Shown here: positions 165-18,935 of the stretch, in pieces | Position numbering within the stretch: position 1 is the first letter of the stretch | Layout: every line of letters starts with the position of its first letter | Source of the DNA: Eledone cirrhosa | Lineage: Eukaryota | Reading direction: 5' to 3' | Assembly: GCA_964016885.1 (NCBI GenBank) | Contig: CAXHJY010000574.1 | Span: 1-18,935, forward strand | Length of the DNA: 18,935 nt | The notes under the pieces: model-generated | Told to the model about the DNA's origin: nothing | The model's input: the letters and a program-made list of their open reading frames with translations, nothing else | The model's database searches: none | Position numbers and translations under genes: made by a program

Positions 165-219
165 GCGGCGATGAATTAGTTTTGCGAGGTTTTTTATATG
201 AAATCGTGTGTCGAAACAG

Positions 220-809
220 ATATTGTTATATTTGGGGAGGGTCATATTTGCGTAATATTGCCAGAATTAATAACAGAACACACTCACTGTTTGGTTGGTT
301 TTCGCTTCTCGCTGTCTTTTATATATATATATCTGCGATCTAACTTACTCGGTCCTCAATGTTGCCATTGACTGACCGGCGGTCAAAAATAATACAGATA
401 CAATATAGACAAACACATATATATATAGTTTACATAAATCTTTCGTTGCACATCTGCAACATCGTCAGTGGTGTTATATTCATTGTTCCTCCTGTTGTGT
501 TGTATGTCTACGCCATTTTTTTTGTTCAGACTGAACAAAAAAATGGCGTAGACATACAACACAACAGGAGGAACAATGTGCAACGAAAGATTTATGTAAA
601 CTATATATATATGTGTTTGTCTATATTGTATCTGTATTATTTTTGACCGCCGGTCAGTCAATGGCAACATTGAGGACCGAGTAAGTTAGATCGCAGATAT
701 ATATATATAAAAGACAGCGAGAAGCGAAAACCAACCAAACAGTGAGTGTGTTCTGTTATTAATTCTGGCAATATTACGCAAATATGACCCTCCCCAAATA
801 TAACAATAT
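220..809. repeat. 590-bp fold-back palindrome centred on base 530
   Basis: 220-453 is the reverse complement of 576-809, and 481-529 pairs with 531-578 (T8 versus A7 run) around a 1-nt apex (gttcag-a-ctgaac). The right arm lacks 30 nt (454-483) bounded by a CAT microhomology. Confidence 0.97.
412..475 (-). ncRNA. Candidate type I hammerhead ribozyme with disrupted stem I
   Basis: Minus strand reads aacacca CUGACGA u GUUGCA gaug UGCAAC GAAA G auuuauguaaa CUA uauauauau guguu. It has both core boxes, a perfect 6-bp stem II, a possible stem III and a CUA triplet. Stem I (aacac/guguu) is offset by a TA run. Confidence 0.55.
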
Positions 810-861
810 ATATATATATATAATAAATAAATAACAAAGAACGCTTATAGCATATGCATAT

Positions 862-919
862 CTTTACTTGCTAACATTGTTTCATCCGCACTATAAGTGG
901 GACTCATCAGAGCATAAAG
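862..919 (-). ncRNA. Minimal type I hammerhead ribozyme
   Basis: Minus strand reads cuuua UGCU CUGAUGA GUCC cacuuauagugc GGAU GAAAC aau GUU AGCA ag uaaag. Core is intact; stem I is UGCU/AGCA extended by cuuua/uaaag; stem II is GUCC/GGAU; stem III is 2 bp; the cleavage triplet is GUU. Confidence 0.85.
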
Positions 920-998
920 GTTAATTACATACCATACAAGCAATAACAAATCCAAGACATTGAAGAATGAAAGGTAATAATGGACGATAGAGGATAAG

Positions 999-1063
999 AA
1001 TAAAAATAAAAATAAAAGTAAAAATAAAAATAAAAATAAAAATAAAAATAAAAATAAAAATAA
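999..1063. repeat. (TAAAAA)n hexanucleotide repeat
   Basis: Read directly; it produces the FYFYFY run in the spurious ORF 925..1176. Confidence 0.95.
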
Positions 1064-1122
1064 GGGGTGCTATCAGTCACAGTTGGGCGGTGTGCTGTCA
1101 ACATATAGTTACATACAAGCAT

Positions 1123-1182
1123 ACACATGGATAAGAGAACAGACAAGAGTAGACACATGGATAAGAGAACAGACAAGAGTAG
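1123..1182. repeat. 30-bp tandem duplication (acacatggataagagaacagacaagagtag x2)
   Basis: Two identical adjacent copies at 1123-1152 and 1153-1182. Confidence 0.95.
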
Positions 1183-1239
1183 ATAAGATAATGGGATTAG
1201 GTAAGAGTAGGTAAAAAATAGGTAAAAAATAGGTAAAAA

Positions 1240-13664: not shown

Positions 13665-13720
13665 TTATTCTGATGAAATGACAGTAAATAATAACATTGA
13701 AATATTGAATGTCTGCATAA
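13665..13720 (+). ncRNA. Candidate hammerhead ribozyme near the 3' end of element 2
   Basis: Reads uuauu CUGAUGA AAUG acaguaaauaauaa CAUU GAAA UAU uga AUG UC ugcauaa. It has both boxes, a 4-bp stem II, a stem III with one U-G pair and a GUC triplet. Stem I is weak. Confidence 0.5.
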
Positions 13721-13931
13721 CTAAAAGTTTGTAGATAGCTGTTTTAGGTTATGTAACTGTTATAGAAACACGTGTCAATAAATTCCTTTCAACTAAACTG
13801 TATCCATTCAAATCTTTCTATTTTTCTCCGGATTACTTTTGGAACTACAACTGGAACCGTCGAGCAAACTCTACGTGAGCTGATAATCTACTGTGTGTAA
13901 TATTTATATTACAACACAACGGAAAATACTG

Positions 13932-14643
13932 TATATATATATACATATATATACATATATATATATATATATATATATACATATATATATACACATATAT
14001 ATATATATATATATATATATATATATACACATATATATATATATATATATATATATACACATATATATATATATATATATATATATACACATATATATAT
14101 ATATATATATATATATATATATATATATATATAATATATATATATATATATATATATATACATATATATATATATATATATATATATATATACATATATA
14201 TATATATATATATATATATATATACATATATATATATATATATATACATATATATACATATATATATATATATATACATATATATATATATATACATATA
14301 TATATATATATACATATATATACATATATATATACATATATATATATATATGTATATATATATATATATATATATATATGTGTATATATATATGTATATA
14401 TATATATATATATATATATATATATATATATATGTATATATATATGTATATATATATGTATATATATATGTATATATATATGTATATATATATGTATATA
14501 TATATATATATATATATACATATATATATATATACATATACATATATATACATATACATATATATATATACATATACATATATATATATATATATATATA
14601 TATATATATACATATATATATATACATATATATATACATATAT
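13932..14643. repeat. (TA)n array with CA interruptions and a TG-interrupted patch
   Basis: Read directly from the sequence. Confidence 0.99.
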
Positions 14644-14764
14644 GTGAAGGCGTGTGGCTGAGTGGTTAGAGAATTGGATTCGCAATCGTAAGATTGTGAG
14701 TTCGATTCCTGGACCAGGCGATGCGTTATGTCCTTGGGCAAGACACTTTATTTCACGTTGCTCC
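14644..14764 (+). mobile_element. tRNA-derived SINE, 5' part with a CORE-like segment
   Basis: Pol III box A TGGCTGAGTGG (14655-14665) and box B GTTCGATTCC (14700-14709), followed by tgtccttgggcaagacactt (14729-14748), which resembles the CORE-SINE motif TGACCTTGGGCAAGTCACTT. There is no proper acceptor stem. The 3' boundary is uncertain. Confidence 0.85.
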
Positions 14765-14864
14765 TTCTACCTGGAGTTGCGACCGATAGATAGTATTAGC
14801 AATTGGAAAGACCAACGGAAACATTGTTCCCTCGGTCCGATTTGACGAAAGTCGATCGTCTTCC

Positions 14865-17800
14865 TATATATACATATATATATATACATATATATATATA
14901 CATATATATATATATATATATATATATACATATACATATATATATATACATATATATACATATATATATATACATATATATATATATATATATATACATA
15001 TATATATATACATATATATATATATATATATATACATATATATATATACATATATATATATATATATATATATACATATATATATATACATATATATATA
15101 TACATATATATATATATACATATATATATATACATATATATATATATATATACATATATATACATATATATATATATATATACATATATATATATACATA
15201 TATATATATATATATATATATACATATATATATATATATATATATACATATATATATATACATATATATATATATATATATATATATACATATATATATA
15301 TACATATATATATACATATATATATACACATATATATATACATATATATATATATACATATATATATATATACATATATATATATATACATATATATATA
15401 TACATATATATATATACATACATATATATATACATATACATATATATATATATACATACATATATATATATACATATATATATACATATATATATATATA
15501 CATATATATATATACATATATATATATATATATATATATATATACACACATATATATATATATATATATATATATATATATATATATATATATATATATA
15601 CATATATATATATACATATATACATATATATATATATATATATATATATACATATATATATATATATATATATACATATATATATATATATATATACATA
15701 TATATATATATACATATATATATATATATATATATATATACATATATATATATACATATATATATATATATATATATATATACATATATATATATATATA
15801 CATACATACATACATACATATATATACATATATATACATATATATATATATATATATACATACATACATACATACATATATATACATATATATACATATA
15901 TATATATATATATATACATATATATACATATATATATATATGTATATATGTATATATATATATATATATATATATGTATATATGTATATATATATATATA
16001 TATGTATATATATATATATGTATATATATATGTATATATATATATACATATATATATATATACATATATATACATATATATATATATGTATATATATATG
16101 TATATATATATATACATATATATATATATACATATATATACATATATATATATATACATATATATACATATATATATATATACATATATATACATATATA
16201 TATATATATATATATATATATATATATATACATATATATATATATACATATATATATACATATATATATATATACATATATATATATATATATATACATA
16301 TATACATATATATATATATATATATATATACATATATACATATATATATATATATATATATATACATATATATACATATATATACATATATATATATATA
16401 TATATATACATATATATATATATATATATATATATATATACATATATATATATATATATATATATATACATATATATATATATATATATATATATATACA
16501 TATATATATATATACATATATATATATATATATATATATACATATATATATATATATATATATATACATATATATATATACATATATATATATATATATA
16601 TATATATACATACATATATATATATATATATATACATATATATATATATATATATACATATATATATATATATACATACATATATATATATACATATATA
16701 TATATATATATATATACATATATATATATATATATACATATATATACATATATATATATACATATATATATATATATATATATATATCATATATATATAT
16801 ATATATACATATATATACATATATATATATATATATATATATATATACATATATATATATATATATATACATATATATACATATATATATATATATATAT
16901 ATACATATATATATACATATATATACATATATATATATATATACATATATATATATATATATATACATATATATACATATATATACATATATATATATAT
17001 ATATATATATATATATATATATACATATATATACATATATATATATATATACATATATACATATATATATACATATATATACATATATATATATATATAC
17101 ATATATATATATATATATACATATATATACATATATATACATATATATATATATATATATATACATATATATACATATATATACATATATATATATATAT
17201 ATATATATATACATATATATACATATATATATATATACATATATATACATATATATATATATACATATATATATATATATATATATATATATACATATAT
17301 GTACATATATATATATATATACATATATATATATACATATATATATATATATATATATATATATATACATATATATATATACATATATATATATATATAC
17401 ATATATATATATACATATATATATATATATATATATATATATATACATATATATATATATATACATATATATATATATATATATATATATATACATATAT
17501 ATATATATATATACATATATATATATATATATACATATATATATATATATACATATATATATATATATACATATATATATATATATACATATATATATAT
17601 ATATATATATATATATATATACATATATATATATACATATACATATATATATATATATATACATATATATATATATATATACATATATATATACATATAT
17701 ATATATATATATATATATACATATATATATACATATATATATATATATATACATATATATATACATATATATATATATATATATATACATATATATATAC

Positions 17801-18501
17801 ATATATATATATATATATATACATATATATATATATATATATATACATATATATATATATATACATATATATATATATATATATACATATATATATATAT
17901 ATATATATACATATATATATATATATATATATATATACATATATATATATATATATACATATATATATATATATATATATATATATATATATATATATAT
18001 ATATATATATATATACATATATATATATATATATATATATATATATATACATATATATATATATACATATACATATATATATATATATATATACATATAT
18101 ATATATATATATATATATATACATATACATATATATATATATATATATATATATACATATACATATATATATATACATATATATATATATATATATACAT
18201 ATATATATATATATATACATATATATATATATATATATATACATATATATATATACATATATATATACATATATATATATATATATATATATATATATAT
18301 ACATATATATATATATATATATATATATACATATATATATATATATATATATATACATATATATATATATATATATATATATATATATACATATATACAT
18401 ATATATATATATATATATATATACATATATATATATATATATACATATATACATATATATATATATTATATATACATATATATATATATATATATATACA
18501 T
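14865..18501. repeat. ~3.6 kb (TA)n array with CA interruptions
   Basis: Read directly from the sequence. Confidence 0.99.
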
Positions 18502-18935
18502 GAAAAGTGTAATTTTCTACACAAAACGAAGGTTATAGAGAAAATTGAGGTTGGTTATGGCACATGGAATATATAAGAGACAGAATACTTTTTTGTGAAA
18601 AAACATAATTTTATAAGGTAAGGAAATAATAAAGGGTATAAAAAATGACCGTTTCGATGGGTCTGCAAAAGCCATCTTTTCAAATGTTGATTAATATTAA
18701 GAAAAATTAATAATACGAAGAGTTAAAATTTGAGACTTGAAAATTCAAGTATAAAATTCATTGTGGGATTTCATAGCAGTTTTCATCTAGGTAGCAACAA
18801 CAGGTTGACTGCTGTGTCCCTTTCTGGTAGTGAATGAGAAGTTATTTGGGGTGTGGGTTATTTTATAAAGGTCAGATTTAGCAATAGCCAGCTGCTGGTC
18901 AGTGAGGGGGTGGAAGCAATATACACACACATACC
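18502..18935 (-). mobile_element. Probable 3' end of a further PLE extending beyond the window
   Basis: HHR candidate ~145 nt from a (TA)n array, the same layout as elements 1 and 2. No coding sequence is visible in the window. Confidence 0.4.
18645..18685 (-). ncRNA. Candidate minimal hammerhead ribozyme with a U3-A8 core variant
   Basis: Minus strand reads AU UUGAAAA GAUGG cuuuugcagac CCAUC GAAAC g GUC AU. It has a perfect 5-bp stem II and GAAAC..GUC. In the first box, C3-G8 is replaced by U3-A8. Stem I is short. Confidence 0.6.

Follow-up and report, generated by a model that had tools for sequence, protein, structure and literature searches.

Four families of Penelope-like elements in TA arrays of Eledone cirrhosa: two fixed end sites per insertion and a junction-specific CT gain

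The stretch of DNA considered here (the window) comprises 18,935 nucleotides from Eledone cirrhosa (NCBI GenBank assembly GCA_964016885.1, contig CAXHJY010000574.1, positions 1 to 18,935, forward strand). About 35% of it is TA array, and the ends of four families of Penelope-like elements (PLEs), termed A to D, lie between these arrays. Three complete two-armed insertions are present (family C at 165-809, family A at 821-5760, and family B at 7795-13931), together with an insert that is presumably of the short interspersed element (SINE) type and the 3' end of a family D element (18502-18935). An arm denotes one inverted half of a two-armed insertion; it ends either at a site S1, without a tail, or at a site S2, with a tail, and all three insertions combine one S1 end with one S2 end. 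The same arrangement recurs throughout the genome, and at S1 of family D the junction with the target array carries additional CT units in hundreds of copies.

The contig starts with a (TA)n array (1-164) that adjoins the S2 end of family C. The S2 arm of this family (165-533, minus strand) is the 3' end of a pseudo-long terminal repeat (pLTR) with a ~58-nt tail (165-~219), and the region doubles as coding sequence for the N-terminus of the open reading frame (ORF) in tandem copies. In its fold-back partner, the tail-less S1 arm (527-809, plus strand), a deletion of ~28 nt takes out the first core of the hammerhead. A short (TA)n (810-820) is common to the S1 ends of families C and A. The S1 arm of family A (821-5652, minus strand) is a near-complete 5.2-kb unit without the first ~180 nt; its open frame (3272-5652) comprises reverse transcriptase (RT), a CxCX5C linker, and a C-terminal endonuclease, and the 3' untranslated region (UTR) spans 2.4 kb. 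A 78-nt tandem duplication (4109-4267) is seen in the Asn/Gly-rich spacer that connects RT and endonuclease; the 3' UTR contains repeats of 80 nt (1742-2124). The S2 arm of family A (5659-5760, plus strand) consists of the ~94-nt tail alone, inverted relative to the main arm. An array of (TA)n/(CA) (2.0 kb, 5757-7794) separates it from the S1 arm of family B (7795-10942, minus strand), which is 5'-truncated and carries one frameshift as well as a weak hammerhead motif (7893-7948). The family B S2 arm (10932-13931, plus strand) features an internal deletion near its 5' end, a hammerhead motif (13665-13720), and a ~115-nt tail. The frameshift is the same in both arms (9587-9596 and 12022-12035), as expected from one defective template, and the S2 arm has one more. 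Two further (TA)n arrays (13932-14645 and 14863-18501) enclose the presumed SINE (14646-14862) and lead to the family D S2 end (18502-18935, minus strand), which is cut off by the end of the window and includes a 39-nt tail (18502-~18540) and the S1 site (~18535-18545, minus strand).

A search of the genome itself returned near-identical copies of every segment (~40-67 among the matches listed). Intact ORFs and tandem copies exist for all four families, the latter giving unit lengths of 5,215 (A), 3,594 (B), 3,904 (C), and 4,863 nt (D). For two of the ORFs, the closest relatives that bear a name are octopod proteins. A first-pass annotation, made from the letters of the window alone, had posited up to four PLE families with 3' ends facing the arrays; the four families are real, although the inverted tail arm at 5659-5760 constitutes a fifth 3' end. 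The segments had been taken as non-homologous, which holds at the DNA level apart from simple repeats and a patch of 119 nt (68%) shared by the A and B ORFs. Only two of them had been linked to RT and GIY-YIG ORFs, whereas all four are, C and D through ORFs of 1,143 and 427 + 777 residues located elsewhere in the genome. Single-copy status or a missing PLE ORF for segments C and D, or a lack of TA enrichment, would have spoken against the first-pass reading; C and D are multi-copy and ORF-linked, and TA flanks are enriched over background. Two broader candidates were rejected for all four segments: non-LTR retrozymes, because the segments are part of coding units of 3.6-5.2 kb and not non-coding tandems, and Naiad/Chlamys, because the endonuclease motifs are C-terminal instead of N-terminal.

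Families A (844-residue frame) and B (785-residue open frame at locus L185) share 45% identity over the RT. Their motifs are RWR and DKT in A (DKA in one other copy) and RWK and DKT in B, and GxKF/Y is not conserved; both combine the CxCX5C linker with C-terminal CxxC and CxH and have no CCHH, as is characteristic of Hydra elements. The spacing between RT motifs A and B' amounts to 64 residues in A and to 62-67 in 25 scored of 56 relatives, so that no insertion is present in the fingers. Both families share TA targets, and the hammerhead is complete in A and weak in B. Family D, in copies elsewhere in the genome, consists of a 427-residue ORF1 and a 777-residue RT-endonuclease frame with the Neptune motifs GLKF, DKG, CX4CxxC with a 24-residue linker, CCHH, and a C-terminal endonuclease. 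Its RT matches Pfam RVT_1 (E 4.6e-07). A PDB sequence search with the D alignment gave no match. In the overlap of the two frames (locus L093, ~4640-4735), a candidate −1 frameshift is located at U-UUU-UUA-GGG, and we infer that ORF2 is expressed by −1 frameshifting at U-UUU-UUA, which we take to be a slippery site. Judged by these motifs, A and B are Hydra-type and D is a Neptune-type PLE, Neptune being a paraphyletic group.

The 1,143-residue ORF of family C (locus L091, 2693-6121) starts inside the pLTR and contains an Asn-rich block of copy-variable length. CCHH and a C-terminal endonuclease are present, and the linker is short (7 residues; 6-10 in 23 scored relatives). The spacing between motifs A and B', however, has a median of 137 residues (110-144 in 96 scored of 120 relatives), and the ~70 extra residues appear in a structure model (pLDDT 91.4) as a well-ordered helical insert in the RT fingers. 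The best match of this model is TERT (Z 15.9, root-mean-square deviation (rmsd) 3.9, 282 aligned), and I-TevI GIY-YIG is matched with Z 11.4, rmsd 2.1, and 88 aligned. A PDB sequence search with C retrieved bacterial DRT enzymes. Pfam gave no useful match for the A, B, and C proteins, and 3-4 of 30 C-group proteins had weak matches to RVT_1 or GIY-YIG. Nematis was rejected as an assignment for C because of the fingers insertion, which is missing from the Nematis rows in Fig. S1 of Craig et al. 2021 (PMC8557442). The insert is common to a large group of relatives, possibly an undescribed PLE clade. By sequence and predicted fold, C is a PLE lineage with C-terminal endonuclease and an unusual fingers insert of ~70 residues, and it stays unplaced. 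Profile comparison ties A to D (probability 99.2) and C to D (99.9), and a quick RT tree (51 rows, no named references, long branches) yields three deep groups, with A and B together and apart from C and D. The landing zone belongs to a known class, its families being new members of the Hydra and Neptune types plus one unplaced lineage; the C-terminal-endonuclease Hydra clade, which had initially been named as reference, is thus apt for A and B but not for C and D.

TA was found within 14 nt of 203 of the 209 free ends as compared to 9.0% of random positions (four mis-typed ends dropped, leading TC stripped), which supports the surmise that several PLE families share a (TA)n target. Such a bias was to be expected here: (TA)n targets are listed for elements of the Hydra, Naiad, and Neptune clades, Hydra-1_Obim among them (PMC8557442), and the first-pass statement that Hydra favours (TA)n was correct. 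Hammerheads in pLTRs, like the targeting of TA, have been described before. In the host satellite of one D insertion, the first run holds 3-12 TA units versus ~51 at the filled site; diverged relatives of the same satellite carry ~40 units, so that this comparison does not demonstrate array growth. The far sides of many TA arrays (loci L161-L240) are rimmed by other repeat ends, namely older C-like subfamilies, further hammerhead-bearing ends, hairpins that we take to be Helitron-like ends, and a recurrent unknown end. Newly formed ends are thus set in TA, and subsequent elements come to be stacked next to them.

All families end at S1 or S2, which are spaced by 94 (A), 115 (B), 58 (C), and 39 nt (D). 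Both sites are TAT/TATA runs in the template, and the copies match the template through that run. Of the 69 outward pairs, 68 combine one S1 with one S2 end (A 16, B 15, C 18/19, D 19; in the C sample the first arm was selected for its tail and the partner arm alone is informative, while the A, B, and D samples include tail-free queries). So do 17/17 further D pairs, which makes 85 of 86 two-armed insertions overall. The sole exception is a neighbouring copy of an older C-like subfamily that had been mis-typed. A whole-list check of the first 192 Mb of C1 gave 37 mixed pairs and two apparent tail/tail pairs, which are explained by an internal tandem junction and by an S1 end. The layout of locus L306 is unlike this usual arrangement: two D tails with a private base change in common face each other across seven TA units (4532-4624; C1:128170517-128170638), forming a tail-to-tail palindrome. 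The junctions between arms are mostly overlaps or gaps of a few bases (63 insertions), and the divergence between arms is smaller within an insertion than from one insertion to another in A (0.7% vs 1.9%) and B (0.2% vs 0.6%). Twin bulged hairpins follow S1 and S2 in A and weakly in B; they are missing in C and D and hence no general signal here. In family D, the motif AACCT-N-CG comes a few bases after each of the two sites (window ~18495-18545), in the place of the twin hairpins of A and B, and might serve as a positioning signal. The optional tail on one inverted pLTR has been published (PMC3846280, PMC8557442), and for PAc two internal starts and extension on both strands were observed in vitro (Frangieh et al. 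2024, PMC11167929).

At S1 of family D, the template contains two CT units before TATA. Among the first 20 S1 ends read, 13 had extra CT units, 5 were exact, and 2 lacked one unit, whereas 58 (redundant) readings of the interior S1 site were invariant. Genome-wide, 776 D S1 ends carrying at least two extra CT units face 184 exact ones, as counted for these two classes, while the interior S1 site in tail-bearing copies was exact 1,485 times (a figure that includes a few S1 ends) and showed one extra CT once; reversed-pattern controls for these counts gave 0. The expansion reaches up to (TC)30, with some runs interrupted, and a short-read contig of another sample exhibits a loose (GA)n at S1, too. 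At the partner S2 ends, the flanks are TA in 41/41 cases and the block is not repeated. The CT gain of family D is likely the product of telomerase-like reiterative copying at priming. By the same slip, the 7-nt TA template at S2 of family D could conceivably add TA unseen. A literature search on PLE twin priming, slippage, repeat addition, and non-LTR slippage, with most subscription papers outside its reach, yielded no report of such a CT gain.

We favour the reading, with a probability of roughly 0.7, that four active PLE families are nested in TA arrays as two-armed insertions written from both ends of a break, and that the D enzyme slips at S1. The GIY-YIG domain would cut both strands of the self-complementary (TA)n, and the two 3'-OH ends would anneal to 3-7 nt of UAU/UAUA in S1 and S2, the sites that bound the tail. 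Both ends would be extended on uncut or circularised RNA, as suggested by the hammerhead cut upstream of both sites and by one D arm of 2.2 units, and a head-to-head joint with short overlaps would presumably unite the two cDNA ends. At S1 of family D, the primer would slip back on UCUC before the U-run and add (GA)n, a short telomerase-like repeat addition. No relatives of telomerase are closer than PLEs. Their young, near-identical copies, thousands in number, represent a genomic record of priming, which displays the use of one start site by each DNA end, in three deep lineages, as well as extra repeats confined to the junction where synthesis starts. This junction-specific gain is the new and testable part, and family D supplies an intact enzyme that is open to a direct in vitro test. 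If the enzyme adds repeats, retrotransposon priming would be tied to telomerase-style addition, and a source for long TA arrays would be given. A bolder version, in which PLE RTs add repeats telomerase-like at priming, (TC)n at D S1 and unseen (TA)n in all families, thereby building their own landing pads, and in which C is an undescribed clade with a telomerase-sized fingers insert, is tentative and to our minds somewhat short of even odds.

Several points weigh against synthesis from both break ends with slippage at D S1. The evidence is genomic DNA, and the genome-wide CT counts cover junctions that are exact or have at least two additional units. Families A, B, and C have no comparable stutter, and in one D S2 flank a TC block lies farther out (C1:53850516). 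In a comparison with public contigs that passed over the TA repeats, neither a joint across an insertion nor a true empty site turned up. For Poseidon of a lizard, start sites without homology to the cut DNA were found (PMC11167929), at odds with the proposed pairing. Divergence within and between insertions is similar in C (0.16% each) and D (0.8% vs 1.0%), so that the sign of a template common to both arms is limited to A and B. Many ends were unpaired in the stretches read, which means that single-arm insertion also occurs, and 10 of 63 insertions are near-perfect palindromes that fold-back could explain as well. Finally, the element may choose rare (TA)n(GA)k(TA)m target sites.

This last point belongs to an explanation in which the extra TC at D S1 originates from the target, a (GA)k next to (TA)n pairing better with UCUC, or from later DNA slippage at the junction. 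TC runs do occur at one end of 9/340 random TA arrays, a 3-Gb genome may hold enough such sites, and the interrupted runs would fit as well. However, no TC block embedded in a TA array was found in 200 kb of random DNA, nor was any among 13,340 TA units or in 19 empty paralogues of one host satellite (paralogous empty sites were located for few insertions only). The S2 flanks are free of the block, the interior (TC)2 was expanded just once against 1,485 exact copies, the copies are young, and the loss of one unit at 2 of 20 S1 ends is what slippage predicts. An origin in the target or in later slippage therefore seems unlikely to us, albeit deserving of serious attention.

The palindromes, in turn, could be ascribed to a single priming event at S2 followed by fold-back of the cDNA, with S1 as the point of endonuclease resolution or of joining to the other target end. 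In these 10 of the 63 insertions measured, among them the C palindrome of the window, the arms start within 20 nt of each other; moreover, the tail has been attributed to endonuclease resolution (PMC8557442) and junction palindromes have been read as self-priming (PMC3846280). Yet the S2 arm is not the longer one in 23/63 insertions, and in six it measures less than 130 nt and faces a longer S1 arm (e.g., 5659-5760 in the window), which cannot be produced by fold-back from S2. The CT gain at S1 fits a start of synthesis there, and two starts were observed in vitro (PMC11167929), leaving fold-back as a rather improbable account.

Hammerhead-type motifs are present in all four families where the first-pass annotation had placed them. 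Family A has a complete type I hammerhead (862-919, minus strand) with helices I of 4+5 bp and II of 4+4 bp, a palindromic helix III, and a predicted cut between 873 and 872. The minimal motif of family C (412-475, minus strand) combines the core CUGACGA with a bulged U, a 6-bp helix II, a palindromic helix III, and a 2-bp helix I, with the predicted cut between 435 and 434. Within the terminal 450 nt, a descriptor scan found one core with helix II per family, including a U3-A8 core variant in D (18645-18685, minus strand; described in PMC4209133) of which the window copy is short of one helix III base; cores with a helix II of at least 4 bp arose in 0, 6, 9, and 2 of 1,000 dinucleotide shuffles for A, B, C, and D, respectively. 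Conserved core, helix II, palindromic helix III, and NUH site, as in minimal type I PLE hammerheads, occur in all four, but a helix I of 4-5 bp is restricted to A, B, C, and D having 2 contiguous bp, similar to a D. virilis variant. The motif of B, which also has no G10.1-C11.1 pair, is the weakest and doubtful. A complete type I hammerhead is present in A alone. Rfam remained silent at E<=10 in narrow scans of all four regions, and on the whole window its output was swamped by simple-repeat miRNA models; monomer folds of B and D do not favour the active hammerhead shape. Diverged A-like motifs at the loci keep helices I-III despite changed letters, and in distant C-like motifs helix I measures 4-5 bp and helix II shows compensatory changes. 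Hammerhead-like cores are frequent genome-wide (25 in 200 kb of random DNA vs 2-3 in shuffles, with TA downstream of 17 and upstream of 7; chance 25%), so their density, initially considered possibly new, is not peculiar to the window.

The distance from predicted cut to S1/S2 end is 55/149 in A, 115/230 in B, 215/273 in C, and 113/152 nt in D, in rough agreement with the ~40-250 nt to TA noted at first. It had also been proposed that the ribozyme processes the RNA near its 3' end, i.e., that the hammerhead cut defines the working 3' end, for which the motif kept near the end of all four families and the compensatory changes in relatives of A and C would speak. As the cut lies upstream of both S1 and S2, and hence of every genomic end, the ribozyme is not the maker of the 3' end, which is set by the two internal sites. 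None of 126 arm 5' ends (63 partner arms among these are unbiased) falls within 20 nt of the cut, which together with the arm of 2.2 units implies an uncut tandem or circular RNA as template. Considering also the 2-bp helix I in three of four motifs and a ribozyme that is dispensable in vitro (PMC11167929), this role is very unlikely, whereas release or circularising of a monomer is possible. That inverted arms and TA arrays are assembly artefacts, as the start of a minor contig with ~35% TA array and long inverted repeats might suggest, is hardly credible, since dozens of chromosomal sites show this asymmetry in the same family-specific form and the two arms are distinguished by tail and deletions.

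Two observations concern the surroundings of these elements. The insert at 14646-14862 carries look-alikes of the RNA polymerase III A and B boxes, on which its presumed SINE nature is based; a tRNA gene was sought therein and none was called. Contigs under two other organism codes match family D at 205/205 and 372/373 letters (locus L178, 1026-1400), for which close relatives, recent transfer, and contamination are all possible.

Compared with described clades, A and B share with Hydra (Craig et al. 2021, PMC8557442; including Hydra-1_Obim) the RWR/RWK, DKT, and CxCX5C motifs, the missing CCHH, C-terminal CxxC and CxH, a hammerhead (weak in B), (TA)n targets, and a divergent wording of motif 4 (Fig. 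S1). They differ by their units of 5.2 and 3.6 kb (generally <3 kb in Hydra), their tails of 94 and 115 nt (30-40 in Hydra), and hammerheads unlike the listed Hydra-1_Obim motif. Family D resembles Neptune in GLKF, DKG, CX4CxxC, CCHH, an ORF1 that lies upstream and overlaps in the −1 frame, the (TA)n bias, and a 24-residue linker as in the Neptune rows of Fig. S2 (PMC8557442); its U3-A8 hammerhead core and the CT gain, not found in the papers searched, set it apart. With Nematis, family C has the C-terminal endonuclease, CCHH, and short 7-residue linker in common (Fig. S2 rows, PMC8557442), in contrast to the A-B' spacing of 110-144 residues in 96 of 120 relatives, which also exceeds the 64-67 of the Hydra and Neptune sets.

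With respect to mechanism, the closest parallel is Poseidon PAc (PMC11167929), in which two internal start sites likewise bound the tail, both strands are cut and extended, and the ribozyme is not needed; here, by contrast, both sites are TA-like and match the target, one site is used per end, and D adds repeats. Slippage at the 3' tails of LINE (long interspersed element) and SINE copies (PMC3747384) and telomerase repeat addition (PMC4993307) are alike in that a short template is copied reiteratively as reverse transcription begins. In contrast to these systems, the D template, for which a boundary element is not in evidence, is an internal two-unit dinucleotide, copied by a sister enzyme of telomerase at one of two starts.

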